Source of the DNA: an uncultured Holophagales bacterium
Lineage (GTDB): Bacteria > Acidobacteriota > Thermoanaerobaculia > Multivoradales > UBA5704
DNA: 64,000 nucleotides
Assembly (NCBI GenBank): GCA_963741305.1
Contig: CAVUHL010000002.1
Coordinates: 56,607 to 120,606, forward strand
Direction: 5' to 3'
Below are positions 8,362-62,941 of this stretch, piece after piece (position 1 is the first letter of the stretch; each line of letters opens with the position of its first letter). Below the pieces are notes generated by a model. That model saw only the letters and a program-made list of their open reading frames with translations, did no database searches and was not told the origin of the DNA. A program made the position numbers and the translations under genes.

Positions 8362-8423
8362 CTTGACAGCGATGGTATCGCAGGTCTGGGATTTGCCTGA
8401 GATTGGTTAGGTTCTCCCGATCT

Positions 8424-10002: not shown

Positions 10003-10139
10003 GCGTTTCTCCTCTGGTCGGGTCGTTTTGATGTCTACTCTGATAATAGAAGTATGTCATGTGGTCTCGTTCGTGACATCATAAGACAGAAAAAGGGGGA
10101 CGCGATCCGTCCGCGCCCCCTGACTGGCACCCTCGAAGC

Positions 10140-16398: not shown

Positions 16399-16405
16399 AT
16401 CCAGG

Positions 16406-40408: not shown

Positions 40409-40411
40409 TGC

Positions 40412-43168: not shown

Positions 43169-43177
43169 CGATCCTCC

Positions 43178-43453
43178 TCACAAAATGCGAACGGGTTCCT
43201 GATCAGAGAGCATGCTCCGCCCATAGACATCGACCCGGACCGCGCAGGAGGCGCACAGGTAGTACACCCGGAGGCTGTCGGTCTCCGAGTCGATATGCCG
43301 GAGGGCCCGCTGGATCGACTTCTCCAAGACCTCGGGCGGCAGGTGCCCCTCGAAAACGCTCCGTTGGACGCGGGTGAGCACCATCTCCAGAAGATCGGCG
43401 ACCTTCTGCCGGCCTCGATCGCTGGAGATGTCGTAGGTCACCAACACTTTCAT
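43178..43453 (-). CDS. cas2: CRISPR-associated endoribonuclease Cas2
   Basis: The internal ATG 43453 of ORF 43178..43513 gives MKVLVTYDISSDRGRQKVADLLEMVLTRVQRSVFEGHL...DSLRVYYLC, the Cas2 ferredoxin-fold signature. Confidence 0.9.
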   Translation of the reverse strand: MKVLVTYDISSDRGRQKVADLLEMVLTRVQRSVFEGHLPPEVLEKSIQRALRHIDSETDSLRVYYLCASCAVRVDVYGRSMLSDQEPVRIL

Positions 43454-43615
43454 GGCTCGCCTGTCTCCTCCGGAGTCCTGTGTTTGCCGAAAAGACGCCG
43501 TTCTTCCGGACACACGACAAGCTTACACGCATACCTGGGTCATTTCAAGACGGTATCTGCAGGAGCGGTAGCCTTCGAGAAGGCAGGCTCCTCTTGGCCG
43601 GCGTGCAGCCAAGAG

Positions 43616-46600
43616 GTCTCAATCCCCCGAAGGGGCATGTGCCTATTGATGAATGAGCCAACGACTTGCCTCAATCCCCCGAAGGGGCGCGACCTTGCTC
43701 TGACCAACACGTAAGTTGACTTAAGCCCGGTCTCAATCCCCCGAAGAGTCCTGACTGCTTTGCGACCCGCCGGCACGACTGCAGCTGCCCGTACTTCAAC
43801 GTGTCTCAATCCCCCGAAGGGGAATGAGATGTCCGGATTGCATACATGTCTCAATCCCCCGAAGGGTCCTGCCAGCTTTGCGAGAAGCGCCCAGGCCAGA
43901 ACCATACGGATGGAGCTGCAGGAAAGTCTCAATCCCCCGAAGGGTCCTGCCAGCTTTGCGAGAAGGACTGCGGTAGCGGCTGGCATTAAGCCGCAATCGT
44001 CTCAATCCCCCGAAGGGTCCTGCCAGCTTTGCGAGTGTACGTTGGCGGCACCCGCTTACGCAGCGAAGTAGGAATGTCTCAATCCCCCGAAGGGCTGCCA
44101 GCTTTGCGAGGCGAGTGACTGACCTTGAGGGACAACGGCGGGGCTACCAGTCTCAATCCCCCGAAGGGTCCTGCCAGCTTTGCGAGGATACGACTCCTTG
44201 TGACAAGCACAGGATCCCTGGAAGGTCTCAATCCCCCGAAGGGTCCTGCCAGCTTTGCGAGTACCTCATGCAACACGTGCCCTATCGAGTATTGGGATCG
44301 TGTCTCAATCCCCCGAAGGGTCCTGCCAGCTTTGCGAGGGTTACAAGCGGCCGGACGGGAGGTGCGACATCATGTCGTCTCAATCCCCCGAAGGGTCCTG
44401 CCAGCTTTGCGAGTCAAAAAAGTGGAGTCTGCTGGCAAGATTTGATCAGGATGTCTCAATCCCCCGAAGGGTCCTGCCAGCTTTGCGAGGGCGCTATTCG
44501 GACGACCGAACCGGTCGTCGTAGTCGCGGTCTCAATCCCCCGAAGGGTCCTGCCAGCTTTGCGAGAATATCATCGGCACGGGTCAGCCCGTGGCCGATGT
44601 ATGTATGTCTCAATCCCCCGAAGGGTCCTGCCAGCTTTGCGAGGGCGCTATTCGGACGACCGAACCGGTCGTCGTAGTCGCGGTCTCAATCCCCCGAAGG
44701 GTCCTGCCAGCTTTGCGAGAATATCATCGGCACGGGTCAGCCCGTGGCCGATGTATGTATGTCTCAATCCCCCGAAGGGTCCTGCCAGCTTTGCGAGGGG
44801 CTGGCGGCTTGTGGGTGAAGCTCCGGTCATGTCTAAGTCTCAATCCCCCGAAGGGTCCTGCCAGCTTTGCGAGTTGCGTTCCTCCGGGGACGCAATAACG
44901 TCTTCCCGACAATGTCTCAATCCCCCGAAGGGTCCTGCCAGCTTTGCGAGGAAACCCAAGCCTCAACCGACCACCCCAGTTCCGATTGTCTCAATCCCCC
45001 GAAGGGTCCTGCCAGCTTTGCGAGGAAAGCCATACGATCTACCCCCATACTCTGGAAAGGTCATGTCTCAATCCCCCGAAGGGTCCTGCCAGCTTTGCGA
45101 GTCTCCAGAGGATGGTCTACACACCGGCACGTCACAACTGAGGTCTCAATCCCCCGAAGGGTCCTGCCAGCTTTGCGAGCAAGAGGGACATCCCGGCTTT
45201 CCTGGCCTTCGCCGGAGATGTCTCAATCCCCCGAAGGGTCCTGCCAGCTTTGCGAGCTCACAAGGGAATGCTGCCCCGAGCAGTAACACAAAACGGTCTC
45301 AATCCCCCGAAGGGTCCTGCCAGCTTTGCGAGAGGGATCGTCCCTTCGCGCTTTGGCCGAAAACGAAGAAGTCTCAATCCCCCGAAGGGTCCTGCCAGCT
45401 TTGCGAGTATTGTCCGTGGCGGCGAGGAGAAAGGGGGAGCGGTAATGTCTCAATCCCCCGAAGGGTCCTGCCAGCTTTGCGAGTCTCGCGATTCGCAGTA
45501 GTGGTGGTTGTGAATTTGTTCAGTCTCAATCCCCCGAAGGGTCCTGCCAGCTTTGCGAGTGCCAGATGGAGAGGTGTATAGATTTTACCATCTGCCAAGT
45601 CTCAATCCCCCGAAGGGTCCTGCCAGCTTTGCGAGGCCGCCATCGCCGAAAAACTGACAGGCATGTTGCAGATGTCTCAATCCCCCGAAGGGTCCTGCCA
45701 GCTTTGCGAGGTCAGCAAGGCGATCGACCTGGTGGTCGAGAAAAAAAGTCTCAATCCCCCGAAGGGTCCTGCCAGCTTTGCGAGCTCTCGTAGAGTTCGG
45801 GGAAGTGCCAGGCTGCCCCAATCGTCTCAATCCCCCGAAGGGTCCTGCCAGCTTTGCGAGTCCTCCGGGAGGGGGCTTTGGCGAGGCACCGGTCAATGAG
45901 GTCTCAATCCCCCGAAGGGTCCTGCCAGCTTTGCGAGAACCAGCTGCTGGAAGGCGCGAATGCCATCCTCGAGACGAAGTCTCAATCCCCCGAAGGGTCC
46001 TGCCAGCTTTGCGAGGTACGTCCAAACGCCTTGGCCATCTTGGTCGAGGAGATGTCTCAATCCCCCGAAGGGTCCTGCCAGCTTTGCGAGTTAATTTCTA
46101 GGGCCGCCGGTAGGCGGCCTCCTTGCCCGGGTCTCAATCCCCCGAAGGGTCCTGCCAGCTTTGCGAGCGCCGCAGCCCGTGAAGGTCGAGGGGTTCGTCA
46201 AGATGTCTCAATCCCCCGAAGGGTCCTGCCAGCTTTGCGAGGCTGCGCAGGGGTCGAGAGATTCCGAACTATCTATCCAGTGTCTCAATCCCCCGAAGGG
46301 TCCTGCCAGCTTTGCGAGGCGGCTGAATTAGAGGGAAAAACCATCACAGAATTCATGTCTCAATTCCCCGAAGGGTCCTGCCAGCTTTGCGAGGTTCATG
46401 GCCTTGGTGAGCATGCTCATGATGTTTACAATGTCTCAATCCCCCGAAGGGTCCTGCCAGCTTTGCGAGCTGAACAGCGGCACGGCCCTCGCCAACAACT
46501 CCCTCAGTCTCAATCCCCCGAAGGGTCCTGCCAGCTTTGCGAGGGGAGAGATACCATGGCACACGTGGGCTTGGAACACGATGTCTCAATCCCCCGAAGG

Positions 46601-49600
46601 GTCCTGCCAGCTTTGCGAGGACTCCGGCGACCGCGCTGGGCAAGCTGGACAAGAAGATGTCTCAATCCCCCGAAGGGTCCTGCCAGCTTTGCGAGCACGA
46701 CCGTCAGCGACCCCACGAAAAACGTTTCCCTTGAGTAGTCTCAATCCCCCGAAGGGTCCTGCCAGCTTTGCGAGGAGGCAGCAAGAGAATTCCTCGAACG
46801 CCTCAGCAACGAAGTCTCAATCCCCCGAAGGGTCCTGCCAGCTTTGCGAGGCCCATGTCGTAGCCCATCACTTGGGGATTCTCCATGTCTCAATCCCCCG
46901 AAGGGTCCTGCCAGCTTTGCGAGCCCTCCGCTGCCTTGACTGAGCAGCATGCCCTCCCGATGTCTCAATCCCCCGAAGGGTCCTGCCAGCTTTGCGAGAC
47001 CGGTGGAGGCGAAGAAGCCCAAGCCTCAACCCACAATGTCTCAATCCCCCGAAGGGTCCTGCCAGCTTTGCGAGTCCAACCCGAAGGTGCGGAAGATCAC
47101 TATCCATCTAACTGTCTCAATCCCCCGAAGGGTCCTGCCAGCTTTGCGAGAAGTGAAGATCAAGAAGGGGATAATGACCAGCGTCTGCATGTCTCAATCC
47201 CCCGAAGGGTCCTGCCAGCTTTGCGAGGAAGAAGGAGGACCGTTTTGGATAACGAAACCATAATCGTCTCAATCCCCCGAAGGGTCCTGCCAGCTTTGCG
47301 AGCGGGATAAGGGCCTCAAGTGGTTCAACGCGTATTATGTCTCAATCCCCCGAAGGGTCCTGCCAGCTTTGCGAGTGACGATGACATCACGGACGGCCTC
47401 TACCAGCTACTGGAGGTCTCAATCCCCCGAAGGGTCCTGCCAGCTTTGCGAGAAAAAAGATGCCAAGCTGCAAGAAACCTACAACTCGAATGTCTCAATC
47501 CCCCGAAGGGTCCTGCCAGCTTTGCGAGTATACCCTCACCGTCTCCAGCTCCTGCACCTAGTCTCGAATGTCTCAATCCCCCGAAGGGTCCTGCCAGCTT
47601 TGCGAGCATGTTCAGCGCACTTCCCTTGGCAAGGTCCACCTTCGAGTCTCAATCCCCCGAAGGGTCCTGCCAGCTTTGCGAGGACAGAAGCTCTGCCTCC
47701 ATATCCTCGTCTTCCTCAGTGTCTCAATCCCCCGAAGGGTCCTGCCAGCTTTGCGAGTAAAAATAGTGTCCCGGTAGGGGGGTAGATCTGCAAAGTCTCA
47801 ATCCCCCGAAGGGTCCTGCCAGCTTTGCGAGTCAGTGTTGGCTGTCATCCTACTGGCGTGTATACCAATGTCTCAATCCCCCGAAGGGTCCTGCCAGCTT
47901 TGCGAGTGGAGGATCCTTATGGGCAGAAGAGGCTTTAGTAGGAATTGTCTCAATCCCCCGAAGGGTCCTGCCAGCTTTGCGAGGCTGGACGACCTGTAGC
48001 CATTCACGAAGGAACATAAAGTCTCAATCCCCCGAAGGGTCCTGCCAGCTTTGCGAGGAAGAGATCGATCTTACGATGTCAGAACTTAATAATGTCTCAA
48101 TCCCCCGAAGGGTCCTGCCAGCTTTGCGAGACACAGGAGATGACTCTCTCGACGAAACGATCCTTCCAGTCAATGTCTCAATCCCCCGAAGGGTCCTGCC
48201 AGCTTTGCGAGCTGCCCCGTCCCACGCTCCAGGAACTGCAAGAAGCCATGTCTCAATCCCCCGAAGGGTCCTGCCAGCTTTGCGAGCCAGAGCAGACAGT
48301 CCTCGCACAGTGAGCCTTTCCTTTATGTCTCAATCCCCCGAAGGGTCCTGCCAGCTTTGCGAGATCGGCGGACCCCCGCACTCGGGGAAGTCCGTCCTTA
48401 TGTCTCAATCCCCCGAAGGGTCCTGCCAGCTTTGCGAGGCGGCGCAGGCTGACGGCTCTGAGCTTGCGTATATCAAGTCTCAATCCCCCGAAGGGTCCTG
48501 CCAGCTTTGCGAGTCGACGGCCCGGCGCGTTCGTACGAGACCGACGGCATGTCTCAATCCCCCGAAGGGTCCTGCCAGCTTTGCGAGGAAGATGCGGTAG
48601 GCCTCCTTCCGCTGACCTTCGAGGATGTCTCAATCCCCCGAAGGGTCCTGCCAGCTTTGCGAGGTCCTCTTGACCAGCGTGTCCCCAAGCCCCGGATTCA
48701 GTCTCAATCCCCCGAAGGGTCCTGCCAGCTTTGCGAGGACGTACAGCGAGGCCGTGCTCAAGGTGCTCGCCACGATGTCTCAATCCCCCGAAGGGTCCTG
48801 CCAGCTTTGCGAGGAAGCAGGAGCAGCTTCACCAGCCGACCTTCGCGAAGGTCTCAATCCCCCGAAGGGTCCTGCCAGCTTTGCGAGTTCATCCTCCGCG
48901 AGGGGGAGAAAGGGCAAACTATGTGTCTCAATCCCCCGAAGGGTCCTGCCAGCTTTGCGAGAAGACAGGCCCGCTATCCATGCAGGAAGATGGAGTCGTC
49001 TCAATCCCCCGAAGGGTCCTGCCAGCTTTGCGAGGACTATCCAGACCCGAGATCTACGCTACGACACTCTCAATGTCTCAATCCCCCGAAGGGTCCTGCC
49101 AGCTTTGCGAGGGCTTTTGGGGTCAGTGGGTTCGGCAGTCGTTGGTAAAGTGTCTCAATCCCCCGAAGGGTCCTGCCAGCTTTGCGAGATCAATACGGAA
49201 ACGAAGCTCCAGCTCGGTTCCTTCAAATGTCTCAATCCCCCGAAGGGTCCTGCCAGCTTTGCGAGCTTTCGGGCTCTGGTCGCCGCGCGGGCGGCGCTCG
49301 TGTCTCAATCCCCCGAAGGGTCCTGCCAGCTTTGCGAGCTGCTTGGCAACAACAGCTTCCTGCCACTCGCCAATCGGTCTCAATCCCCCGAAGGGTCCTG
49401 ACAGCTTTGCGAGGCCGAATCCGTCAGATAAACCACTTCTCGAGGTAGAAGGTCTCAATCCCCCGAAGGGTCCTGCCAGCTTTGCGAGAGTACAGGGAGT
49501 TTGATGTTCTGGCAGCCGTAGTGATGTCTCAATCCCCCGAAGGGTCCTGACTGCTTTGCGAGCTACGACGATGTTCAGGAGATGATCGCGCCTTAACGAA

Positions 49601-49870
49601 AGTCTCAATCCCCCGAAGGGTCCTGCCAGCTTTGCGAGGTTACCGCAATGTCCACAGCTTCACCTTCGCGGTAACCAATGTCTCAATCCCCCGAAGGGTC
49701 CTGACTGCTTTGCGAGCCTAGTTGGCTGAACCAATCCTTTTGAGGGATACTTGCTGTCTCAATCCCCCGAAGGGTCCTGACTGCTTTGCGAGCAGCAGAA
49801 CAATATGCATATCATAGCGATCCGAAGCTCAATGTCTCAATCCCCCGAAGGGTCCTGACTGCTTTGCACC
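43616..49870 (-). CRISPR. CRISPR array 2: 80 full 37-nt repeats plus 4 degenerate trailer units, 79 spacers (36-44 nt)
   Basis: Plus-strand repeat GTCTCAATCCCCCGAAGGGTCCTGCCAGCTTTGCGAG; full copies run from 43848 to 49834-49870. Degenerate or truncated units lie at 43616, 43668, 43730 (array-1-type) and 43803. Variants occur at 44076 (2-nt deletion) and 46357 (C to T). Hybrid repeats lie at the leader end. Confidence 0.97.
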
Positions 49871-50110: not shown

Positions 50111-51130
50111 ACCCTTGGACTCCAAAGGATCGAAGAGCTTTCCGCCCCACCGGTTTCACTTCGTGGAACTTCCCACCCCTCCTTCCGGCAGACGTGACCT
50201 CGATTCTGCCGCACCCCGCGGTGGGGTTCTTGCCCAGGTGCAGGATCTCTCCCGCCCGGAGGATCGGGAAGAACCTGGCCGCTTCGGGTCCGTAGACCAA
50301 GCGGCCGATTTGCCGCCGAGCAGCATCTCGGCGCCGGAGCGGGCGGAGTAGTCCTTCACCTCGATCCATTCGGTTTCGTTCACGAGGAGCGGCACCCGGG
50401 CGGCCTCGCCTCGACGGTGGGGCGGATGGCGGGATGGAGGATCTCGCTGGAGCTTTCACCGTAGAGGCCCTCGGAAGCGGTCAAGGATGCGGGCAATCAG
50501 CAGCGCAAAGGGTACCGGCGCGTTCCGCGGTAGGAGCCGACCTCCTTGGAGGAGCCGCGCCGGACTCAGCAGCCGGATCTCCACCGGCTGGGGAGCGAGA
50601 AAGGGCTCCATCCCTAGCCCGAGCCAATCCGGCTCCAGAGTTGGGCTCAGTTGCGTCAAATCGCCGCCACAGAGCCTCTCGCGGCTGCGGTCGGGCCGGA
50701 TCCGGTCGACGGTCTCGAGGATCCACTCGGTCCGCTCGCTCCCGAGCCCCAAACGGAACGCCTGCGCAAGGCCCGAGAGGACCCAGGGATAGAGGCGCCA
50801 GCCCGCTCCCAGGAGGGTGACCTCCAGGATGGCTCTTTCTTCTTCGTTCCCCGAGGTGTACAGCGCGAACGGGGGCCGCGCGCTCCGGCTGGCGGCGAAG
50901 AGCACGCCATACGGGCAGCACTCTGCGAGGTGGCAGAGGTCCTGAGGCCTCGGCCGCGGCTCGCTCCCCGCCTCGGCCCCCTGGCACCGCGGCTCTCCGA
51001 ACGGGCAGAACGTGTCGATGAACGCCTTCCCCAGGACGCGCCGGACCAGGGCGGCCGGGAGAACCGGCTCGGTGTTCCCGCGCCCGGCGGCCGGGCGCAC
51101 CTGAAGGCGAAGGCGAAGGTAGGGGTGCAT
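50097..51130 (-). CDS. cas6: Cas6-type pre-crRNA endoribonuclease (Cys-rich N-terminal variant), frame broken about twice
   Basis: ORF 50456..51130 (MHPYLRLRLQV...FCPFGEPRC...CHLAECCPYGVLFAA...) continues through pieces of ORFs 50156..50395 and 50097..50459. It ends with the glycine-rich loop LHLGKNPTAGCGRIEV typical of Cas6. It lies directly upstream of leader 2 and array 2. Confidence 0.6.
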
Positions 51131-51145: not shown

Positions 51146-52890
51146 TCAGCGCTTAGGCGGCCGCTCGTAGCGTTCCAGGGCTGGCAGGGGCTTCCCAGGT
51201 TCGAGGGGCGGCAACGCCTTCTTCTTGCTCTTGTCGTTCGTCATGAACCACCGGAAGTTTTCGCCCTCGGCCTTCTTTCCCAGGAGAACCGGATAGCACA
51301 CCTCCGTATTCAATTCTTCCACTTTCGCCGGATCTCCCAGCAGCTCCAGCGCAGCACGTACCTCCTCAGGAATGGACTCCTGGACCTCCGCCAACAATGC
51401 ATCGCAGCCTGGGAGGGCCTGTGCTTCCCCAGGTAGCGCCGTGACAGCTTCGGCTTCATGCCGGTAGCGTCGTGCGAGCTGCGAAGATAGATTGCGCCAT
51501 GCCTCGGCGTCGATCCGCGATTCCATTCTGTGGAACTTCGGACCGAAGAGCCGATCCGACTGATAGCCCGTTCGCCGGTTCGTGAAGCAGAGGGCGAGGA
51601 GATCGATGCGAATCTTCCCGAAGCCCAAGGGTTTGGCCATACCCAGCTTGTGGCGGAACTTCTCGGTGGGCCTCAAGGCATAGCGGAGGTAACCCAACTC
51701 CTCACGGGTGAGGTTCTCGAAATCGACATGAAAAAGGAAGCGGGTGTTCTTCTTGAGCGGCCGCACCCGGGCCTTTTGCTTCATCGTCTTGCTTTCCAAC
51801 TGCCGGCTTTCGTAGTTACGAGCCTCGACGTCTTCCTCCCGGTGGTGAAGGTAGAATTTCCGGCCCTGGGGTGCGTGCTTTCGGAAGTCGAGGCTCTGCT
51901 TGCTGAGATATCTCTGGTTGCCGAAATAGAGAGCCGGGCTCGGCGGCTTGGGACTGGCGAGAATCTTGAGCAAAACCGGCGCGTCGTACCAGCCTCCCTC
52001 CGGAGGACCACTCTCCGCCATGGCATGGGCGAAACGGAGCCGGCCGGCCAGGGCTCGCTCTTTTCCTCCTTGCTCCACGAATCCGAAAAGCTGTTCCGCC
52101 AGAGTTAGCTGCGTCCGACCTGCATGCAACGGCACAAGGTCGGGTGAGACCCGTTCAAAGGCGCGGTGCACACTGCCGCCGATGGGTACTTTGGTTCCCG
52201 TAAGGTCCCGGCGCTGGAAAAGTGCGTCCGCCAGCACCCGAAGCGTCGAGCAGGAGGCCGCCTCGACGATGGAGGAGATGAGTCCTCGGAGGGTGCTTCC
52301 CGGAATCATGGGGGTTCGCCGGTAGGGATCGTCCGGCGCGTCCGGGTCTGGCGATCCGAAGGGATAAATCAGCCGTTCCCTTTCGGGATCCGGCTCCTCC
52401 TGTGAGTCTTCCTTCGCGTGCGGCTGCTCGGCGCCCACCACCACGGGACCTTCGGTCTCCAGCCGGCAGACGATGCGGCCGGAGTAGCGCCGGGGACCGG
52501 CTTCTCCGTCGCCGTCGAATCGATCATGGAGGGTGCCGTTCAGGACCTTGTTGGCTCCGCCAGATGCGAGGGAGGCTCAAGGGGCACGAAATGATAGGGA
52601 TTGAGGAAACTCCGCGCCGGCACCGCCCGAGCCGGGGCCGGGCGTGCGGACCCGATATAGGGCTTGAAGCTGAGGACACGGGGCGAGTCCGCCTTCGGGT
52701 CGGGCTCGAACTCGATCCGCCGGCCGGCGGCAAGCTCCGCGTCCGGATAGCCTGCATCCCGCGCCAGAGAGATATGGAAAAAGTGGAAGTCCGGCCAGTC
52801 CTGCTCAGGGCGAGTGCGAATCTTACGCACATCACGATGCTGAGGCTTGCCGCCCGGAAACTCCACGATGGTGCCCTCTTGCCAAGCCAT
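51146..52890 (-). CDS. cas7: Cas7-family RAMP with large insertion and N-terminal cold-shock-like extension (TIGR03986-like), frame broken once
   Basis: ORF 52540..52890 (MAWQEGTIVEF...FLNPYHFVPL) continues in ORF 51146..52444 (MIPGSTLRGLISSIVEAAS; LAGRLRFAHA; KFYLHH; LGMAKPLGFGKIRI glycine loop). Confidence 0.65.
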
Positions 52891-53404
52891 TACGAGCCCC
52901 CTTCCACGGCGCGGTAGCGGACGTAGCGGACAGCGCCTGCCTGGACGTATTCCCTATAATCAGGAACGCGTATCGGGGAGAGCCGGGATCGAGCCCCTCG
53001 TAGCGCAACGGGTCGGGGATACGCTCCTCATACCAGGTTGCGGTGCCTTCCAAGGCTTCGCCCCAGAGACGGGAGCGGCGGTCGCGTTGCACCCAGCCGG
53101 GCCCGCCGATGTGTTGCGCCGATCCCTCGGGAGCCGTGGGGATCACGGCCAGCTCGACGCCGCGGTCTCCCAACCAATGCAGGTCGCGCTCGTCGTTGAA
53201 GACCCTCAGCTCCTGAAGCGTGGGGCGACGCGCGATCTCCTCCCAACGAGCCCGCGGGGCGCGGAGAAGGCACGCTTCGGTGGCCGTCGTGTAGAACCCC
53301 CAGGTCTCCTCGGACGGCAGCTTTGCTAGGAAGTCTTCGAGGTTCGCCAGCGGATGGATGGTGATTTCTTCGCTCGGTTGGATGAGCTTTCCCTCACTAC
53401 TCAT
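52890..53404 (-). CDS. small type III-D accessory subunit, Csx19-like by position and size, frame broken once
   Basis: ORF 52832..53404 (MSSEGKLIQPSEE...) reaches, after a frame switch near 52960, a TAA that overlaps the next gene's ATG (TAATG at 52888-52892). The assignment comes from synteny (between Cas7x2 and Cas7-insertion) and its ~170-aa size, not from a recognised motif. Confidence 0.35.
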
Positions 53405-54974
53405 GGGCCGATCCCTCTCTGGGCTCGCCGGTCTGCGGGTGGGCGCTCAGCTCGCGATGAAGCTCCTGCACCCAGGTGGCGAAGCACTCTTGCAACTCCG
53501 GGCCGGCCAGGTCCCCGGCCGCGGCAGGGCTTTCCACGGGCCGCGGCGGACTCCAGCTCGCGCTTCCCGGACGCTCCTGGAGCTCAGGCACGCCCGCGAG
53601 GGCCGCGGGCGGCTGAAGCCAGAAGCGGTCCGTGGCAGTGATCCTGCGCGGAATATTCGTTGAGCCCTTTCGCCGTGCCGAAGCCCACCGGAATATCGGC
53701 GAGCAGGAGATCCCGGAGCACCAGGGTCATCAGCCCCAGCCCCCACTCCTCCAGGCGATAGCGGCCGATCTCCAGGTGGATCTCGCCGGCCAGGGTGACG
53801 GCGGGGCTCAGCTCGGCATTGAACTTGGCGCCGGCTGACGAGCCGCCGGTGAAACGGTCCACGGCCACGAATTCCTGCCGCTAAGGGGGGCCCTCGGCGG
53901 GTCCGAGTGGAAGGAAATCCGTGATCCTGACCGGCGAGGCGAGCCTGCCGCTGCCGAAGACGCGGCAGGCCTTGCAGTGGACGGCGAGCTCGCCGTCAAA
54001 ATCCATCTTCTCATCCAACTTCTCGTGACAGGCCGCTCCACGGCGGTTGAGGTAGCAGGCGGCCGGCTCGCCGCCCAAGGTGCGCAGGATCTGCTCGGCC
54101 CGGCTGCGCAGGGCGCCCCGCAAAGCGCTGCCCGGCAGCACGGGCCTACCGTCCGCCTGACGTGCGTAGGTATGGTCGAAGCCGGACCCCAGGGCCTCCG
54201 CCGGGTCGTTGACCAGGAAGCCCCAGGGGAAGTGAAGCTCAATCCGAAGCCGGAGCTGTGCCCAGGCGTCTCCTTCAGCCGGCAGGTCCCACTCCGCATT
54301 CCAGCCGGAGGGAATGAGGGGGTCACCGCGGCGCCGGCCGTGGGGTCGTCGGAGAGGAGGTTTTCGACGAGATCCGCCGGCCGGGTCATGTCCAACTCGG
54401 CGCGGTCCAGACGCACCAGCTCGGCCCGACCCAGGCCGGAGGAGGTCTTGCCACCCAGGAAGAGCCAACCGGCGGCCAGACGCTGCAACACCGCCTCCAG
54501 GGCACGCAGCTCATCCTCCTGCGGATCGTCGATCCGCAGCTCGAAGGGAAACTCGACGCCGCCCTCCACCACCTCGACGTCGTACTTCCGCCGGTCCGCC
54601 GCCGTGCGCGTGCGCCGGTCGATGCCCACGCGGTCGCGCACTCGGGTCGACAATGGACCGCTGGACGCCCCTCCCAAGACGTGGAGCCGCGAGGCGGCGA
54701 GGTGGGAGTCTTCGCCGTCCTGGCGTCGCCGGCCGGCCGCGCGGGGTCCCAGCAGGCGGCAGACGACACACCGGCATTCCGGAGCACGGCGGCACCCTCC
54801 GGTGAGCCGCTCCAGGTCGGCCCGCAGGACGCCGGCCAGTGACGAGCCGGAGAGCGCCACCTGGCCGTCCGTCTCGCGGAAGAGGGGTTGGTCCACGGCT
54901 CCGAGACGGCGGCCGTCGCCGGTGTGGAAGCCGTAGGGGAAGCGCAGGGCGCCCGTGTAGGTAGTCCTTTTCAT
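53397..54974 (-). CDS. cas7: fusion of two Cas7 (Csm3/Cmr4-like) RAMP domains (Cas7x2), frame broken 2-3 times
   Basis: Starts at ATG 54974 (MKRTTYTGALRFPYGFHTGDG). Domain 1 has LSGSSLAGVLRADL, a CxC..VC Zn-like motif and LGGKTSSGLGRAEL. Domain 2 (ORF 53881..54468 frame) has PVLPGSALRGALRSRAEQIL and a Cys cluster, then ORF 53584..53868 has VAVDRFTGGS...PVGFGTAKG. The likely stop is TAG 53397. Confidence 0.65.
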
Positions 54975-55489
54975 GGCTGTGCCTGCTTTCGCGCCTCGTC
55001 CATCCACCGCCGCGCCAGCGCGCGGAGGAGGACGCGTGCGATGTCCGTCAAGAACCGCTTTTCGGCTTCGAGATCCCGTGGCAACGCGCCCCGGAGGGCA
55101 TGCCTCACCTCCGTCACCGCTGCCCTGACTGCCGCTCCAGATCCTCAAGCCGTAGAGGCCCTGCTCCCCCTCCTCCACCTCACCCAGGCGGTCCAGGGCC
55201 TCGGCGATAGGCTCCCAAAGGCCCTGCTCTCCTTCGCGGTCCTTGCGGTTCTGCTTTTCGCGATCCTGGTCTTGCGGTTCTGCCGGATCCGGCCAGCCAT
55301 GCCCCGCAGCTCGGCCGCCATGGCGTCGCGGTCTTTCATCGTGGCGATGCGGAGGAGCAGGGCGGCGGCCGGGCGGAGGTTCTCCTCCCGCGGCCGGAAG
55401 GAGTCCCAGGGCGGAGGCATGTCCACGCCGGACTGCTGTTCCAGCACGGCCACGAGCCGGCGTTCGAGCACGTCGCGCGCGGCGATCAT
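54971..55489 (-). CDS. cas11: Cas11-like small helical subunit, two compensating frame switches
   Basis: ATG 55489 overlaps the upstream stop (ATGA) and the TGA at 54971-54973 overlaps the downstream ATG (ATGA). Helical, charged sequence: MIAARDVLERRLVAVLEQQ...EPIAEALDRLGEVEEGEQGLYGL...RFLTDIARVLLRALARRWMDEARKQAQP. The middle part reads sensibly only in a second frame. Confidence 0.45.
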
Positions 55490-57366
55490 CGGGATTCCCT
55501 CCTCGGCTCGGGAGCTGCCGTCTCTTGAATCAAGATCACGCCGAAGCCCTCGTTGCGGCGCAGGCCGATGCCTTCCCGCGCCGCTCGTTGCAGGGTCTTC
55601 AGCTCCTCTTCGGCCCCGTTCTCCGGCCGGACCAGCAGAAAAGACGAGCCGGCGGCCACCGCCAGTTGGTCGGACTTCGGCAGGCGATGCGTGCTGTTCC
55701 ATCCGGCCAGCAGGTGGAAAGAGCTGAAGGCTTCATCGAACTTCGGCCGGGCGAGACCCAGGTCGCCCGGCACCAGGCTCTCGCGGAAACGGAGGTGTTC
55801 GTCCGCCACGAGGGCCGGCGTCACCAGGTCGATGCGGAGATACCCGGAAGCCGGCCACTCGTCCGGCACCGGGGCCGCGTTCGGATAGAGGCCGGTTCCG
55901 CCGGGCCGGCCGGCGAAGGCCGAGACCCGGCAGTCCAGATAGCCCAGGGCGCCCTTGCGCCGCCCGACGCGGAGCGGAAAGCTGTCGCTCACGGCAAGCC
56001 CGAGACCGGCGAGGAGGCGCTCCGTGTCGTCCGCGCTCCCGGCTTCGATGAACCCCCGGAGGCGCGTCCCTTCGGGCAGGGCCTCGTAGGCGAAGAGCCC
56101 GTCCTCTCGAACCGTCTGGCTCTCGGGTTGGATCCGGTTGTGAGGGCTCAGCGCTAAGCGCGCAGCCACGTCTTTGCCCGCCCCCTCGAAGCGCGGCCCC
56201 CAGGGGATCAGGCGGGCTCCGCAGTGCTGACAGCGCTCGATCTCAGGCTCCAGCAGCAGGTCCACGAAGCCATGACCGAAGGATTGTTTCGGACCTGGAC
56301 GGATCTTGCAGGTGTGCTTGGCCAGCGGCACCGGCCGGCTGGCCGCCTGTGCGGAGGGCGGATAAAGGAATCCGAAACGCACGCCTCCTGAAAGGAAGCA
56401 GCGCAGGAAGTCCTCCCCGGCCCGGTCTCCCCGCCAGCGGGCTGCCAGCGCGCCGCGAAGGGCGCTTCCGGCCACGAACGGCAGGCCGGCGATCAGGTTG
56501 CCCGCTTCCGGGAGGCCTCCCATCACCACCTCGCCCACCACCGTGGCGTCGATCTGGAGGAGCTTCGAGGCTCTACCAGAACCTGCCTCTTGCGATGTAG
56601 GGGAGGAGTTCCCCTTTTCCCGGACGGGGGCAGGCACGTCCCGACAGAGAGGTCCAGGGCAAGGGCCTTCACGGCGTCCTCCCAGGATGCGAAGGCGGGA
56701 GCGAGGATCCACCTGGTCGAAGCGGATACGACAGGCGCCGAGCCCCCGCCGGCGGTGGCCTCCGATCTCGCGGATGAAGCGGAGCGCCGCGACGAGTAAG
56801 CTCACCTCCTGCCGCGCCAGCCCCGGCTCGATGTCGGTCGAGCCCGCGAGCTCGAATCCTTCCAGCGATTCTTCCAACGTGAACAGATGCTCGTCGGCCG
56901 CCCGGCCGCTCCTGAAATCGATGGCCGTGCGGGGATGGGGACGCGCCAGCAGTCCATTCACTTTGACCGCCTCCCGGGCCAGCTCTTCCCGGTCCGCCTG
57001 CTGCCAGACCGGGCCGGCCCCTCCCAGAAGCACGAGCCGCGCCGGACTCCACGCCACCAGGGATTCGCGATGGGGCGAGCCCGTGAGAGCACAGAACGGA
57101 CAGAGCCCCTCCCGGCCCAGCCCGCAGAGACTGCCGAGGGAGCCGTCCCGGCGGGTGAGCGTGCCGTCGCAAACGTCGATGGCGAGCGCCTCCGCCAGCT
57201 TCCGGACCGCATCGCGCACCAGCCCGCGGATCGTGGAGCCGGGCACGAAGGGAAGACCCAGGGCGTCGCGCCGTACCAGGCTGTCCAGATAGCGGCCCGC
57301 GGCCTCGCCGCTGCCGATATGCCAGCTCCGGTCGAAGTGGATGGTGTAGTCGATCCGCACGGTCAC
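55486..57366 (-). CDS. fusion of Cas7-like and Csx10/Cas5-like RAMP domains
   Basis: Uninterrupted 626-aa ORF. The N-terminal domain has HIGSGEAAGRYLDSLVRRDALGLPFVPGSTIRGLVRDA and GGHRRRGLGACRI. The C-terminal domain has LPFVAGSALRGALAARW, CQHCG-type Cys motifs and GIGLRRNEGFGVILI. Confidence 0.65.
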   Translation of the reverse strand: MTVRIDYTIHFDRSWHIGSGEAAGRYLDSLVRRDALGLPFVPGSTIRGLVRDAVRKLAEALAIDVCDGTLTRRDGSLGSLCGLGREGLCPFCALTGSPHRESLVAWSPARLVLLGGAGPVWQQADREELAREAVKVNGLLARPHPRTAIDFRSGRAADEHLFTLEESLEGFELAGSTDIEPGLARQEVSLLVAALRFIREIGGHRRRGLGACRIRFDQVDPRSRLRILGGRREGPCPGPLCRDVPAPVREKGNSSPTSQEAGSGRASKLLQIDATVVGEVVMGGLPEAGNLIAGLPFVAGSALRGALAARWRGDRAGEDFLRCFLSGGVRFGFLYPPSAQAASRPVPLAKHTCKIRPGPKQSFGHGFVDLLLEPEIERCQHCGARLIPWGPRFEGAGKDVAARLALSPHNRIQPESQTVREDGLFAYEALPEGTRLRGFIEAGSADDTERLLAGLGLAVSDSFPLRVGRRKGALGYLDCRVSAFAGRPGGTGLYPNAAPVPDEWPASGYLRIDLVTPALVADEHLRFRESLVPGDLGLARPKFDEAFSSFHLLAGWNSTHRLPKSDQLAVAAGSSFLLVRPENGAEEELKTLQRAAREGIGLRRNEGFGVILIQETAAPEPRRESR

Positions 57367-58884
57367 TCCTTCCGCAGCTCCGAGAGCACGAGAGCATCCG
57401 CCAGGGCCAGGCGGTGATAGGTCCGGGTCTTGCCTTCGGCATGCACGGTTTCCGATCGCAGCAGGTCCGGTAGCGGCGGAACCTCCGGATCGAGCGCGAA
57501 CGGCCTCTTTTCCTGGTCCTGGCGCGCCAGCCAGGCTGAGAGCTCCGCCACCACCCTCTCGGGCACCTGCCAGACGGCGTGCAACCGCGTATCGGGCCCG
57601 TCGTCCCGCGGCGAGAGGATCTCCCGCAGCCGGCCCCGTTGGCTCGCCGTCACGTCCGCCAGCCGGCTGGCCAGGCCAAGGAGGTCTTCAAGCTCCTCCG
57701 GCGTGTACGGACCCGCCGCGCCGTAGGACCAGGCCGTGCCGGAATCCTGCTCCGGCCGCTCGATCGTGGCGCGCTCCTGCTCCAGGGATTGGACCTGCGT
57801 AGCCGTGACCCGGTGAAAATCGAGCGCCGCCTGCACGCCATCCTGCCGGCAGCGGGCCTTCGCCCGGCCGAGCAGGGAGTCGGCCAGGGTGTGGGCCTGG
57901 CGGAAGGGAAACGAAGGTTTGGAGAAAAGGAGCCCCGCGGCCATGCCCGTCGTGCGGCCAGGCTCCGTAGGCTTCTCCACCTCGAACTTCCTCAGCAACT
58001 CCATGGCAAAACGGATCCCGTGCCGCGCCGGCAAGGCCACGACCAGGTCATCGCCGCCACAAATGAGCACTTGGAGACTGGGGCTGGAGTCGCCAGGGAA
58101 CGCCGCCTCCACGGCATCGTTCAGGGCCTGCGCAGGGTCGAATCCACCTCGGTGGAGAGCTTCTCCACGTCCTCGAGGCTCAAGTCCTCGAACCAGTCGC
58201 CGAGGCCATTGCCGTCCGCCACCACCAAGGCGAGATCGTCCTCGCCCGCAAGATCCTGGAAGTTGGCCGGCAGCTTCGCGCCCCGCAGGCGTTCCGTCAC
58301 CACTGGGAGATCCAGGGGTTCCGGCAACCGTAGACCTCGTGCTTGGGATCGCGGCCCGGCTTGGAAAGCTCCTGCAGCTTGCCGTGCATCCGGCGCTTGC
58401 GGGCGCAGGCCGGGCCAAACCACTGGGGCCGGTCTGTTCCAGGATCGCGAAAGGTTTCGTCCGCCGTTTCCCGGCCGCAGACCTCGCAACGCTTGAGAAA
58501 CGGCATCGAGGCGAGCTGCCGCGCGCCTCCGGATGCCCGTTTCGCCCGCCGGAGGAGCCGCATCAAGTCTTTCTGATCGAGCTCTGCGGACTCCTCCTGC
58601 GTGAGCGAAACCAGGGTGATTCCGTCACCGCCGGTCAGATCCAGAAAGGCGTTGCGGACGCATTCGATCAACTGGGCCGCGCGCGTTTCGTCCGCGAGGC
58701 GGGCAAGGAAGTTCCCACCGCCCGAATAGATCCTCCTGCCGCCGAATTTCCGGATGAGCTCCGGCACCGCCGCGCGGTCAAAGAAGTCGATCAAGGCGCT
58801 CGCGCCGCGCATCTCCAGGAGCCGCGGAGATCCGAAGATGTAATCCTGGATGCTGCGCACGTCGCCGGCCACGTAGGTCGGCAT
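57363..58884 (-). CDS. cas10: small Cas10 (two Palm domains, zinc ribbon, GGDD cyclase motif, no HD domain), frame broken twice
   Basis: ORF 58297..58884 (MPTYVAGDVRSIQDYIFGSPRLLEMRGASALI...YSGGGNF...CEVCG) continues into ORF 58121..58489 (LALVVADGNGLGDWF), then ORF 57363..58418 (ICGGDDLVV, GGDD at 58047-58058). About 507 aa in total. Confidence 0.7.
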
Positions 58885-58918: not shown

Positions 58919-60646
58919 TTACGCCGGTTTGAGCCGGCCCATCAGATCTTTGTACGACAGCGGCTGGCAGTCCGCCGGGATGCGGCCGCCGGCGGCCTCC
59001 AGCAACCGGCCTTCCCATTCGTCCAGGCGCTCCCGCGCCGCCGGATCGAGATCCGGCACGTCCTCCCGGAACCGGGCCAGCACCACCGAAACGAGCGTCT
59101 GTAGAACCGTGCGGTAGTACTGGAGCAGACGGTACGCCTCCTCCTTCGGCACCGGCGCCAGCCAATGCACGGCCTTATGGCGTAGATCCGAGAAGTCCCA
59201 GAGTTTCGCCGTACCGCCCTTGCCCTTGAACAAGCCGCCGTCCAACTCCTTGGAGAGAGCCGGCGCCGCGAGCACTACCGCACACGTCTGGGATTTCGCA
59301 GCCTCCGCGTCCTCTGATCCTTCTAATCCGTCCGGGGAGATCTCCAGGCTCTTCCCGCGGAGCACCTTGAGCGCCTGGGCTGAGGATCTCTCGCAGATGT
59401 CGAGGGCTTGGGAACGAAGCTCTCCGATCCGTTCGTCGTTCAGCTCTCCAGGTGAGGAGACCTGCAACCGCTCGGGGTGCCGGCCGACGAAGACGTACAG
59501 GGCGAAGGAGATCACTGCCTCCAGAGTGCCGTACAGACGCAGGAACACATCGCGCGGGCGTTCCTGGATCTGCGCCTCGCCGTTCCACACCAGGACGTCC
59601 AGGAAATAGGCGAGGCCGGTTACCGGGTCCGAGAAGACAGCCCCCGGCGAGAGCGCTTGGATGATTGCTCTTGACGGATCATTCGTGCGCGGCCATACCT
59701 TGCCGAGGCATTCCACGGTGGCGGCCACCGGAACGCCAGGCAAGGCCGCGATAGCGGCCTCGGCGTAAAAACCCTCGCTCCACAGGCCATACGAGCTGCA
59801 CACCCGCTGCACGGCATCGAACCGCGCCGCCATCGGAAGCCCCGCGAGCAGTTTCTTCACCTCGGGACTCGCCGCCATCTCGCGCAGCTCACCCGCCAGT
59901 CTTTCAGCCTCGCGAAATCGGCTCCGGTCGAACTCCTCTTCGAGCCGAACTTGCTCGCGAAGCTTGAAAAGACTGTAAGGATGCTGGAGCCGGCCCGGCC
60001 GCGAGGTCCCCGGAACCGGCCTTCGCAGGATCGAATCGTCGTATTGGTCGAAATCCACATAGCTCGATTCGAGCTCCAGGAATCCTGCCGCGAGAAACGC
60101 TCCGGCGATCATCGACTTCTTGGCCCCCGTGATATCCAAGACGATCCTCGCCACGGAATCCTGGCGCTCCTCGACGATCTCCCGCACGGTGAGGAAGAGG
60201 TCCGCCGCATCGTCTCTGACCTGGCGCTTCTCGACTTGGCCGTATGCGGGCACGCCGAGGAGGGTGCGGTACTCGTTCCAGAGCTTCTCCAGCACTCGGA
60301 GAGGCTCCTCCTCAAGATTCTGCTCGATCAGCAGGATCACCTCCACCTCTGCATGGTGGGCCACTGCCAGGAGGAGCGGCTCGGGAGAGTGGCCCACGCA
60401 GAGGATGAGCAGATCCGGCCCGCCGATCTCTTGGCGGCGTCTTGCCCCTCGCTCGCGGACTTCCCTCAACTCGGCGGAGAAAATCGGCGGTGAGCCGGGC
60501 TCCCCGTACCACAACTCATGCTCGATCCCCCTCAGCTTCTCCGCGACGGCCCGCGCGCCCAGGCGGTCCAGAAGCGCCTGGTAGCGATCGACCAGGGGAC
60601 TCTCGGACTCCTCGGACCGGCTCCCGGAGAACTGCGCCTCGTTCAT
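58919..60646 (-). CDS. CARF domain protein with C-terminal HEPN-like Rx4H motif (Csm6/Csx1-class ancillary effector)
   Basis: ORF 58919..61042; the likely start is ATG 60646, preceded by GGGGAG. The CARF pattern is DLLILCVGHSPEPLLLAV...VLDITGAKKSMIAGAFLAAGF. RHKAVH lies at 59165-59182 near the C-terminus. Confidence 0.65.
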   Translation of the reverse strand: MNEAQFSGSRSEESESPLVDRYQALLDRLGARAVAEKLRGIEHELWYGEPGSPPIFSAELREVRERGARRRQEIGGPDLLILCVGHSPEPLLLAVAHHAEVEVILLIEQNLEEEPLRVLEKLWNEYRTLLGVPAYGQVEKRQVRDDAADLFLTVREIVEERQDSVARIVLDITGAKKSMIAGAFLAAGFLELESSYVDFDQYDDSILRRPVPGTSRPGRLQHPYSLFKLREQVRLEEEFDRSRFREAERLAGELREMAASPEVKKLLAGLPMAARFDAVQRVCSSYGLWSEGFYAEAAIAALPGVPVAATVECLGKVWPRTNDPSRAIIQALSPGAVFSDPVTGLAYFLDVLVWNGEAQIQERPRDVFLRLYGTLEAVISFALYVFVGRHPERLQVSSPGELNDERIGELRSQALDICERSSAQALKVLRGKSLEISPDGLEGSEDAEAAKSQTCAVVLAAPALSKELDGGLFKGKGGTAKLWDFSDLRHKAVHWLAPVPKEEAYRLLQYYRTVLQTLVSVVLARFREDVPDLDPAARERLDEWEGRLLEAAGGRIPADCQPLSYKDLMGRLKPA

Positions 60647-61146: not shown

Positions 61147-62941
61147 AGACTCAATCCCCCGAAGGGTCCTGCCCTAATTGCGGCTAGGAGCCTGCGCGCC
61201 AGAAAACCGGATAAGCGGGCGAAGGTACTTGCCGGCCCCTGACGCACGAGCCGCAGGAGAACGAGCGCTATGAACGCGGGGCCGGTCGAGCTGCCGCCGG
61301 ACCTCCGTCCGGCTCGCCCGCGACCTCCTGCCGCAATTCCGCTCAGCAACTCCAGCGACTGGCCGCATCGACCTCCAGCCGTGCCGCGCTTGGACTGAAG
61401 CGCCGCAGATAGCCGGGATTGCGCGGACAGCTCGGCCCCGTTCGCAACTTGGCTCAGCAAATCCTCGGCAGCCGCTCAGCTCAAGGAGCCTACGACTTGA
61501 AAAGGGGCCGCCGCAGGAAAGAAGTGCGGTGCCCCATATAGATCGCATGTGGTGAAGGAGACTTCCGACATATGCCGCTTTTGCGGTAGTTGGGGTACTT
61601 TTCTGGCGCGCCGGCTCCGGAGTTTGCCGTACGCTGGAATGGCGCCCGCATCGCAGAAGAAATGTAATGCCCCGAAGGGGTCCTGCCCTAATTGCGGCGA
61701 GCTAAGGCCCAAACAATGAACCGTCCGAGAACAGCTTCGTCTCAATCCCCCGAAGGGTCCTGTCCTAATTGCGGCCGAAAGAAGGTCTGGCTCACGCGAC
61801 TATAGTAGTTACGTCTCAATCCCCCGAAGGGTCCTGTCCTAATTGCGGCCTGGGAGATCAACGGCTTCATCGTTCACTACAATCACAATGTCTCAATCCC
61901 CCGAAGGGTCCTGTCCTAATTGCGGCAAGGTCGTGGTGGATGTTCCACCCCCCATTGGAGGAGGTTGGAAGTCTCAATCCCCCGAAGGGTCCTGTCCTAA
62001 CCCGGCCAAGCCGGAACCAAACAGGGAGGACGCATGCTACACTCTGGGTTCGGCAGGATCTGGCATCTTCACCTGTCAAGCACAGGAACAGCGAAAACAC
62101 CGATCCAAGCATTAGAAGCCTTTTTACGCCAACCGTCCTGCTGCCCACGAAGACCCTTCCCGTGATAGTGACTACGGGTAAAGGATTTTTTATGCTTCCT
62201 TTCCAAAATTCTCGCCATTTTGGCAAAGATCTCACTCTTAAGGGACTAATTGCGGCTCCAGTGGGAAGTGACGGGGGCCCCTTCGACGGACCTATCGATG
62301 TCTCAATCCCCCGAAGGGTCCTGTCCTAATTGCGGCGACATCGGCCCGACTGATGCAGGTAAGCGAGCGGTGGTACCGTCTCAATCCCCCGAAGGGTCCT
62401 GTCCTAATTGCGGCCCAATAGTTCAGGCTCAAAGCCGATGTTGCTGATTTTTAGTCTCAATCCCCCGAAGGGTCCTGTCCTAATTGCGGCGGCCCTAGGC
62501 AGATAACCGTCAGATGGACTTGTGAGGGTCTCAATCCCCCGAAGGGTCCTGTCCTAATTGCGGCGGTAGAATCCCGAACCTTTTCAAGGGAAGATATTCA
62601 GATCCGTCTCAATCCCCCGAAGGGTCCTGTCCTAATTGCGGCGTGGGACTCGCCCACCGTGTTCGTCACAATGGTGAACAATGTCTCAATCCCCCGAAGG
62701 GTCCTGTCCTAATTGCGGCTTCTTGATGTAGGCGGTGGCTCCCGCCTCGAGCCCCCGGGGTCTCAATCCCCCGAAGGGTCCTGTCCTAATTGCGGCGTTG
62801 AGTACGACGTGGCGGTGCCGGCAGACGGAATGACGTCTCAATCCCCCGAAGGGTCCTGTCCTAATTGCGGCACCAACTGCCACTCCAGATGCAGGGACCG
62901 GCTCGTCTCAATCCCCCGAAGGGTCCTGTCCTAATTGCGGC
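61147..62941 (-). CRISPR. CRISPR array 3: 13 full repeats (one split by an insertion) plus 2 degenerate distal units
   Basis: Plus-strand repeat GTCTCAATCCCCCGAAGGGTCCTGTCCTAATTGCGGC; full copies run from 61739 to 62905-62941, with spacers of 33-44 nt. A degenerate copy sits at 61664-61698. An orphan degenerate copy at 61147-61183 is separated from it by ~480 bp of non-repeat sequence. Confidence 0.93.
62001..62249. mobile_element. 249-bp insertion inside a CRISPR repeat, flanked by a CTAA direct duplication (MITE-like)
   Basis: The repeat starting at 61971 is intact for 30 nt (..CCTGTCCTAA) and resumes as CTAA-TTGCGGC at 62246-62256. The insert is AT-richer and has subterminal hairpins (CCGGC-CAA-GCCGG at 62002-62014; GCCA-TTT-TGGC at 62214-62224). 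I see no clear terminal inverted repeats and no ORF. Confidence 0.6.

Follow-up and report, generated by a model that had tools for sequence, protein, structure and literature searches.

A CRISPR-Cas locus of type III-D with fused Cas7-Cas5 and Cas7-Cas7 subunits and a free small gene in an uncultured Holophagales bacterium

Genes of the effector operon

The stretch of DNA analyzed here, which we call the window, comprises 64,000 nt of contig CAVUHL010000002.1 (assembly GCA_963741305.1, positions 56,607-120,606 of the forward strand) from an uncultured Holophagales bacterium. A type III-D CRISPR-Cas effector operon lies on its minus strand and is read from 58884 to 51146. The fusion state of this operon is one in which Cas7 is fused to Cas5, the small subunit is free, two further Cas7 domains are fused to each other and the terminal Cas7 is without an insertion (INS) domain. 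We consider it quite probable that the locus is a type III-D interference module with an effector of fixed composition and a fusion state conserved in its clade, and that the breaks found in its reading frames are for the most part assembly indel errors.

To derive the layout, the DNA was translated in three frames, scanned for protein families and compared with homologous loci. Raw open reading frame (ORF) calls were misleading, because the high G+C content (60-70% for the contig) produces numerous long ORFs that are spurious while the true genes are broken up; homologue-guided alignment was used instead. Frames were corrected by frameshift-aware alignment to L001 and L056, homologous loci that are intact and independent of each other. 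The genes of the operon and those flanking it are:

58919..60646, minus strand: CARF-HEPN (Csx1/Csm6-like) ancillary RNase gene upstream of cas10; ATG at 60646; Rx4H motif RHKAVH
57363..58884, minus strand: cas10, ~507 amino acids (aa); Palm1, GGDD Palm2 and helical C-terminus, no HD domain; three frames, two frameshifts
55486..57366, minus strand: cas7-cas5 (csx10) fusion of 626 aa in an open ORF that overlaps cas10 by GTGA; Asp28 conserved
54971..55489, minus strand: free small helical gene, ~172 aa, taken as Cas11; ATGA overlaps at both ends
53397..54974, minus strand: cas7-2x (two fused Cas7 domains), ~526 aa; frameshifts and an in-frame TAG
52890..53404, minus strand: csx19, ~171 aa; TIGR03984 and PADLOC Csx19; one frameshift
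51146..52890, minus strand: terminal Cas7 of the TIGR03986 family, ~581 aa; short form without INS domain; frameshift
50156..51130, minus strand: cas6, ~320 aa; PADLOC Cas6 3.1e-36; four frameshifts

A first-pass annotation had read the order cas10, cas7-cas5, small gene, cas7-2x, csx19, terminal Cas7 directly from the sequence. That order is correct, and every gene except the small one could be assigned to a family, which identifies a type III-D effector operon with the gene order of the III-Dv variant. The junctions between the effector genes are, in order, GTGA, ATGA, ATGA, ATGAGTAG and TAATG, and couple the genes tightly; the ATGA overlaps that had been reported on both sides of the small gene lie at 55489 and 54974. 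The RAMP motifs are likewise present: five were found (VPGSTIRG, VAGSALRG, LSGSSLAG, LPGSALRG and IPGSTLRG), together with the glycine-rich loops.

The frame-corrected Cas10 is matched by PADLOC Cas10 (1.3e-60) and by PF22335 Palm2, which places the system in type III, and it matches the Cas10 chain of PDB 8s9t_C at 1.4e-6. It begins directly at Palm1 without an HD domain and carries its GGDD at residue 277. The protein encoded upstream is matched by PADLOC CARF1--CARF_HEPN (6.3e-40) and Csx1/Csm6 (1.5e-33), and weakly by TIGR02710; its gene also precedes cas10 in the related loci L001, L002, L004 and L056. In two relatives, L004 (5037-6645) and L058 (1-1771), the CARF-HEPN gene has two further genes upstream of it that the window lacks, one Csx3-like and 430 aa long, the other of ~100 aa.

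Profile hidden Markov model (HMM) typing places the 626-aa and the double-Cas7 proteins in RAMP/Cas7/Cas5 families, in line with the original proposal. In the 626-aa ORF, PADLOC assigns Cas7_IIId to the N-terminus and Cas5_IIId/Csx10 to residues 287-616, and there are further matches to Pfam RAMPs (7e-24), Cas_Cmr3 and TIGR02674 Csx10 (3.8e-15). The Cas5_IIId match of 3.6e-23 over residues 287-613 identifies the Csx10-type Cas5 of subtype III-D. The ORF ends in a TGA that overlaps the ATG of the next gene, so it does not form the single Cas7-Cas5-Cas11 polypeptide of III-Dv. Its profile aligns to residues 4-588 of the 791 residues of that polypeptide from Synechocystis sp. PCC 6803 (hhalign, probability 99%, E 5e-18), ending just ahead of the Cas5-Cas11 linker K602-T624.

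The double Cas7 is matched by PADLOC Cas7_IIId PDLC02115 (5.5e-62 over residues 3-450), and among PDB sequences by 9wxh_D (Cas7x3) at 9.4e-27 and 8s9t_D (Cas7-2x) at 2.2e-19. Its two RAMP domains lie in one homologue-guided frame, as in the Cas7-2x of III-Dv, and intact homologues of 533-575 aa exist. Csx19, a mark of subtype III-D, is present: TIGR03984 matches the frameshifted ORF at 4.5e-8 (33.0 bits against a cut-off of 35) and the PADLOC model matches the corrected protein at 4.5e-11. The catalytic aspartates that had been noted in the RAMP domains were compared with D26, D33 and D246 of Synechocystis (PMC11026444). D28 of Cas7-Cas5 aligns with D26 and D28 of Cas7-2x with D33; the third aspartate is also conserved, in a 'GFDH' motif, but stands two columns away from D246.

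The terminal Cas7 is matched by TIGR03986 (6.8e-68) and by PDB 9wxh_D (1.7e-51) and 8s9t_E (9e-18). It had been described as a Cas7 with a large insertion. In fact the insertion is missing: ~240 residues that are present in the 800-850-aa homologues and in Synechocystis are absent, residues 230-473 of the L001 protein (the counterpart of the Synechocystis INS domain) are replaced by ~30 residues in the window, and the terminal Cas7 is thus not split by an INS domain as that of III-Dv is. The protein does keep the extra N-terminal domain of ~80 residues as well as the helical region at its C-terminus. The clade contains two natural forms of this protein, one of 789-852 aa with INS and one of 565-614 aa without it, and the nearest relatives of the window's protein are short (P0075, 567 aa, 67% identity; P0076, 572 aa). 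A collapse of the assembly was considered as the cause of the gap and rejected, because alignments to the closest relatives (565-572 aa) span 96-99% of the query with no gap and because L056 is an intact locus of the short form. Since csx19 lies between cas7-2x and the gene for the terminal Cas7, which are not joined, the operon also differs from III-D2, which has Cas7x3 and neither Cas11 nor Csx19.

The same layout occurs in at least eight independent loci, intact ones among them. Seven of these (L001, L002, L004, L006, L007, L056 and L058) share the order CARF-HEPN, Cas10, Cas7-Cas5, small protein, Cas7-2x, Csx19, terminal Cas7; the locus L008 ends at the small gene. Genes are intact, with identical architecture and 4-nt overlaps, in L001, L002, L004, L007, L056 and L058. 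Sizes within the clade are 508-521 aa for Cas10, 619-639 for Cas7-Cas5, 163-196 for the small protein, 533-594 for Cas7-2x and 168-184 for Csx19, and the terminal Cas7 is followed in related loci by cas6 and/or cas2, RT-AEP (a reverse transcriptase (RT) with an AEP primase) and cas1. The named sources are Thermoanaerobaculia and Acidobacteriota metagenome-assembled genomes (MAGs). For the 626-aa protein 30 relatives were found (45-69% identity), essentially all of them full length at 602-658 aa apart from one 351-aa fragment, and none has a C-terminal extension. Neither the 31 Cas7-Cas5 proteins nor the 33 small-protein clusters include a member in which the two are fused. The intact loci establish that fused Cas7-Cas5, fused Cas7-Cas7 and a separate small gene are a conserved state and not a sequencing accident. 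The architecture is a conserved, undescribed fusion state of type III-D that stands between the unfused and the more fused forms.

Fusion states among type III-D systems

Reconstructions of the way in which the single-protein Cas7-11 evolved from a multi-subunit effector draw on variants of type III-D, and the present clade adds a state to this fusion series. The named stages towards III-E are III-D1, in which all subunits are separate; III-Dv, with Cas10, Cas7-5-11, Cas7-2x, Csx19 and a Cas7 with insertion; and III-D2, with Cas10, Cas7-5 and Cas7x3 but no Cas11 or Csx19 (PMC11026444; bioRxiv 10.1101/2022.06.13.496011; PMC13294483; PMC12669027).

The III-Dv system of Synechocystis (pSYSA; PDB 8S9T-8S9X; PMC11026444) shares with the window the order cas10, cas7-cas5(-cas11), cas7-2x, csx19, TIGR03986 Cas7, cas6, an HD-less or HD-inactive Cas10 with GGDD, the catalytic aspartates and a CARF-HEPN partner. 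It differs in having its small subunit as a C-terminal domain (residues ~625-791) instead of a separate gene and in an INS domain that exposes the seed, where the window's terminal Cas7 has none; moreover, the window's Cas10 is on another branch, and identity is low, about 24% over Cas7-Cas5. The III-D2 system of Gammaproteobacteria bacterium HyVt-522 (PDB 9WXH; PMC13294483) also has a Cas7-5 fusion without Cas11, and its Cas7x3 is the best solved-structure match for both Cas7-2x (9.4e-27) and the terminal Cas7 (1.7e-51). However, its three distal Cas7 domains are all fused, Cas11 and Csx19 are lacking, its GGDE Cas10 makes SAM-AMP for CorA whereas the window has a CARF-HEPN partner, and its Cas7-5 barely matches the window's Cas7-Cas5 (E 0.032). 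The unfused III-D1 operons (cas10, cas7, csx10, cas11, cas7, cas7, csx19, csm5-like; PDB 8BMW; our loci L013, L016 and L047) have the same order, a free small subunit and Csx19, and the Cas10 of the window's clade clusters with theirs (100% bipartition). In these operons, however, Cas7 is not fused to Csx10, nor the two middle Cas7 to each other, and the terminal Cas7 is short and Csm5-like while that of the window is of the TIGR03986 type. Finally, both Cas7-2x and the terminal Cas7 find their counterparts among the Cas7 domains of III-E Cas7-11 and III-I Cas7-11i (1e-11 to 1e-16), and NCBIfam gRAMP models match the window proteins in part; those systems are single-protein effectors without Cas5 and with an absent or degenerate Cas10, whereas the window's effector consists of six separate polypeptides.

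A further 49 III-D loci from a scan of a genome collection were annotated with local HMMs. The fully split state is found in Chloroflexota, Caldatribacterium and others. A second state, with separate Cas7 and Cas5 (~480 aa), then Cas7-2x, a small ORF and Cas7-INS, is found in Bacteroidales/Prevotella. A third, Cas7-Cas5 with a ~170-aa C-terminal extension followed directly by Cas7-2x, occurs in L010, L054 and Synechocystis. The window's own state is found in the Acidobacteriota clade and, separately, in L019, a locus from a Chloroheliaceae MAG (Chloroflexota) with a free 202-aa ORF. The Bacteroidales/Prevotella MAG loci (L012, L014, L015, L024-L031, L034, L035, L039 and L053) have a separate Cas7 of ~180 aa, a ~480-aa Cas5 (possibly Cas5-Cas11) with Cas7-2x immediately after it, a ~135-aa ORF and a Cas7 with insertion, and their Cas10 groups with III-Dv-like systems.

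A Cas10 tree was built by neighbor-joining from 44 sequences (469 columns, 200 bootstraps). Since it is unrooted, distance-based and drawn without III-D2 and III-E, its reading is provisional. The present clade is monophyletic (100%). A split that sets the clade, the split-type systems and L019 apart from the III-Dv-like systems and the Bacteroidales type also receives 100%, and L019 pairs with L018 at 100%. A position of the clade as sister to all fused lineages has 45%, one as sister to two split-type loci 52%, and a grouping with Synechocystis/L010 0% (0 of 200 bootstraps). The clade thus falls with unfused III-D and not next to III-Dv. Provisionally, the tree suggests that the clade is near the boundary of unfused and fused systems, which would fit the description 'less fused than III-Dv', and the clade does not appear demonstrably to be the stem of III-Dv; the layout seems to have arisen or moved at least twice.

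[quoted passage not shown] The less fused state is indeed conserved, but a single line is too simple in view of the Cas10 tree, L019 and the Bacteroidales loci. The linear path agrees with the gene order shared with III-Dv, with the Cas7-Cas5 protein being most similar, among solved structures, to the III-Dv Cas7-Cas5-Cas11, and with the 45% for a sister position to the fused lineages in the unrooted tree. It does not agree with the bootstrap values for a grouping with Synechocystis/L010 and for the 100% split just given, with the occurrence of the same architecture within another Cas10 lineage (L019), with the Bacteroidales loci in which Cas7-2x is fused yet Cas7 and Cas5 are not, or with Cas7-2x and the terminal Cas7 being closer to the III-D2 Cas7x3 than to III-Dv. 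We therefore regard the linear path as unlikely. Because the same layout is present separately in a Chloroflexota MAG, we read the fusion states as a mosaic and not as a line, a picture that the Bacteroidales and Chloroflexota layouts together suggest.

Broken reading frames and the free small gene

The 626-aa ORF is open as first reported, but the remaining effector genes are broken and could be read only after homologue-guided frame correction. The effector range 51146-58884 contains at least 10 indels and one TAG stop. Frameshifts lie near 58326 and 58129 in cas10, near 54320 and 53646 in cas7-2x (with the in-frame TAG at 53883), near 52960 in csx19 and near 52550-52570 in the last Cas7; the small gene has a compensating pair near 55273-55234 and 55133-55121, which leads to a premature stop at 55147-55145. 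Outside this range cas6 is shifted at four sites (50473, 50409, 50308 and 50195) and cas1 near 40264, and the CARF-HEPN gene has a possible hidden compensating pair (59305/59285). A probable pair of the same kind is located within the 626-aa ORF, in the linker of Cas7-Cas5 (56706/56642). In total ~17 indels and one nonsense codon were counted in ~14.5 kb of cas genes. The indel sites share no sequence motif or homopolymer except for one C5 run, and most are non-homopolymer sites.

Similar damage is found in housekeeping genes. In the FadB-like gene (enoyl-CoA hydratase/3-hydroxyacyl-CoA dehydrogenase; 12636-14768) the 3HCDH_N domain is split over two frames near 13650-13700, a PAF-AH-like hydrolase (7103-8406) is split near 7660, and a TPR protein (8735-10056) is also frameshifted. 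A codon-usage Viterbi segmentation of the window located further sites (391, 9058, 31616 and 33804) where the frame changes on the same strand with no stop codon. These frameshifts outside the CRISPR genes show that the indel problem is contig-wide, and rule out that frameshifts are confined to cas genes, though their density there is somewhat higher. In the related long-read MAG loci L006 and L008 it is different genes of this operon that are frameshifted, and loci from other assemblies are intact. Because similar frameshifts affect housekeeping genes of the same contig, we believe that those in the operon are probably assembly errors.

Two figures weigh against assembly error. Indels occur at about 1 per kb in the cas genes and at about 0.3-0.5 per kb elsewhere in the window, and the CRISPR repeats have one indel in 4.4 kb. 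Because the density in cas genes is about twice the background, we retain, as quite unlikely, the explanation that the cluster is decaying and non-functional, the frameshifts and the TAG being real and the arrays being relics or served by an effector elsewhere in the genome. The sheer number of lesions in the cas genes and the location of most indels outside homopolymer runs would also suit decay. It is opposed by the frameshifted housekeeping genes, by the same kind of damage in different genes of the related long-read MAGs and by the three arrays with ~116 spacers and near-identical repeats; in addition, one nonsense codon against ~17 indels would be unlike neutral decay, in which substitutions exceed indels. 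We therefore consider assembly error the likelier cause. Since its sequence is broken, the window copy is a poor template, and L056 is its intact counterpart.

The ~172-aa gene is probably the Cas11 small subunit, a call that we base on its position, its size, its coupling to its neighbors and a confident all-helical model. It lies between cas5 and the next cas7 with ATGA on both sides, an arrangement that is the same across related loci, and it occupies the very slot that csm2/cas11 takes in operons of unfused III-D systems and the Cas11 domain takes in III-Dv. An AlphaFold2 model of the homologue P0032, built from 38 sequences, has six helices and a mean predicted local distance difference test (pLDDT) score of 94.9; an earlier model from 10 sequences (pLDDT 52) was unusable and its Foldseek matches were meaningless. 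A search of 1.84 billion representative proteins with the small-protein profile found 33 clusters, all free-standing and of 156-202 aa except for two fragments of 87 and 114 aa. Among the weak profile matches (E about 1) are the small ORFs at the Cas11 position in L047 and L032 and a segment of the Synechocystis fusion (residues 679-777); the enrichment of positional Cas11s among such weak hmmsearch matches (p about 0.01-0.04) is suggestive only.

The description of this gene as 'helical Cas11-like' held for its being separate and all-helical, as modeled, but a Cas11 identity by sequence or fold was not borne out, and the following searches speak against the Cas11 call. The family had no match in Pfam (38 members scanned), in PADLOC or among PDB sequences, nor in an NCBIfam scan that covered the N-terminal 114 aa. 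Hhalign of its profile with the Synechocystis Cas11 domain gave a probability below 1%, and a Foldseek search of the pLDDT 94.9 model against the PDB gave nothing below E 0.001, Foldseek being weak on helical bundles and on domains within long chains. Hhalign comparisons of the profile with the L019 202-aa ORF and with the C-terminal extension of L054 were negative. That the gene is a lineage-specific accessory or structural protein, with the helical C-terminal domain of Cas10 alone filling the small-subunit role, is nevertheless rather unlikely: such a view would draw on the lack of resemblance to any known Cas11 by sequence or fold and on III-D2, which functions without Cas11 through the Cas11-like C-terminal domain of its Cas10 (PMC13294483), but would leave aside the exact csm2/cas11 slot, the translational coupling on both sides, the right size and all-helical bundle, and the weak matches to the positional Cas11s and the Synechocystis residues named above. 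In the closest MAG relative (L006, 11851-12600) the small-subunit ORF is 249 aa long and the family profile matches it twice (1-88 and 74-162), so that the gene either contains a duplication or has been misassembled.

Proposed mechanism, arrays and adaptation genes

The III-Dv complex has single-copy subunits, three aspartate cleavage sites and a Cas10 whose cyclic oligoadenylate (cOA) activates Csx1 (PMC11026444). We propose that Cas6 cuts the precursor of the CRISPR RNA (crRNA), leaving an 8-nt AUUGAGAC tag, and, by homology to the solved Synechocystis complex, that one copy each of Cas10, Cas7-Cas5, Cas7-2x, Csx19 and terminal Cas7 would assemble on a crRNA of ~37 nt. In such a complex four Cas7 domains would form the backbone, Cas5 would hold the tag and the free small subunit would join in one or more copies. 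Complementary RNA would be cut at up to three sites by the aspartates of Cas7-Cas5 and of both Cas7-2x domains. From the domain content, binding of a non-self target is expected to activate the GGDD palm of the HD-less Cas10 to make cOA, which in turn would activate the upstream CARF-HEPN RNase. A CARF-domain effector gene beside a Cas10 with a GGDD palm is the arrangement of cOA signalling, and it is this partner that suggests cOA as the messenger; the production of SAM-AMP instead of cOA by the III-D2 Cas10 (PMC13294483) is a point against it. The adaptation module could take new spacers from RNA.

[quoted passage not shown] Cas7-11 from which INS had been deleted was reportedly still active in work by Kato and colleagues in 2022. 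Relatives with and without INS, compared in pairs, amount to a natural experiment on how the seed is exposed. Tentatively, and with slightly less than even confidence, we suggest that the Acidobacteriota clade and the independent Chloroflexota locus represent an unnamed III-D architecture of Cas7-Cas5, a small subunit that is free and has diverged strongly, Cas7-2x, Csx19 and a terminal Cas7 that may or may not have INS, and that fusions in type III-D took place repeatedly and in varied combinations and not along one path to Cas7-11. If so, the free small subunit could vary in copy number within a complex of otherwise fixed stoichiometry, and the function of the insertion domain could be tested on members that naturally lack it. 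This would refine the evolutionary scenario; it implies no new biochemical principle or mechanism.

The CRISPR arrays and adaptation genes of the window are:

61739..62941, minus strand: third CRISPR array (array C), 4 + 9 repeats of the third variant, with a break at 62008-62299
43848..49870, minus strand: main CRISPR array (array B), 80 repeats of 37 nt
39427..43453, minus strand: adaptation module downstream of the main array, with cas2, RT-AEP primase fusion and cas1
43181-43453, minus strand: cas2
40412-43168, minus strand: RT (RVT_1) + TOTE-type AEP primase + Mu-Gam-like C-terminal domain, 917 aa, between cas2 and cas1
39427-40408, minus strand: cas1, with the frameshift near 40264
37004..39001, minus strand: second CRISPR array (array A), 27 repeats

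The main array has spacers of 36-44 nt and the transcribed-strand repeat CTCGCAAAGCTGGCAGGACCCTTCGGGGGATTGAGAC, from which the 8-nt crRNA tag AUUGAGAC is predicted; transcribed-strand repeats end in ATTGAGAC, the 8-nt tag expected of type III. Degenerate repeats at 43615-43803 mark the old end of this array. The three arrays together hold ~120 almost perfectly conserved repeats and ~116 spacers. They represent three repeat variants, which have in common the 24 nt nearest the crRNA tag (...GGACCCTTCGGGGGATTGAGAC, transcribed strand) and differ in the other 13 nt; a few leader-proximal repeats of the main array bear the variant of the array at 37004-39001. At 44451-44799 of the main array a two-spacer unit is exactly duplicated in tandem (spacers at 44490/44644 and 44566/44720). 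The third array is broken at 62008-62299 by ~290 nt of non-repeat sequence, and the repeat ahead of the break has a divergent end.

The gene for the 917-aa protein belongs to an RT-primase adaptation module and is not an RT-Cas1 fusion; the module with the RT-primase fusion is also present in L002, L004 and L007. Away from the CRISPR-Cas genes, a lower-GC stretch at 16402-16695 contains a tandem repeat with nested periods of 21, 42 and 84 nt (unit about CAGGGGTGCAATGCCACGTTG).

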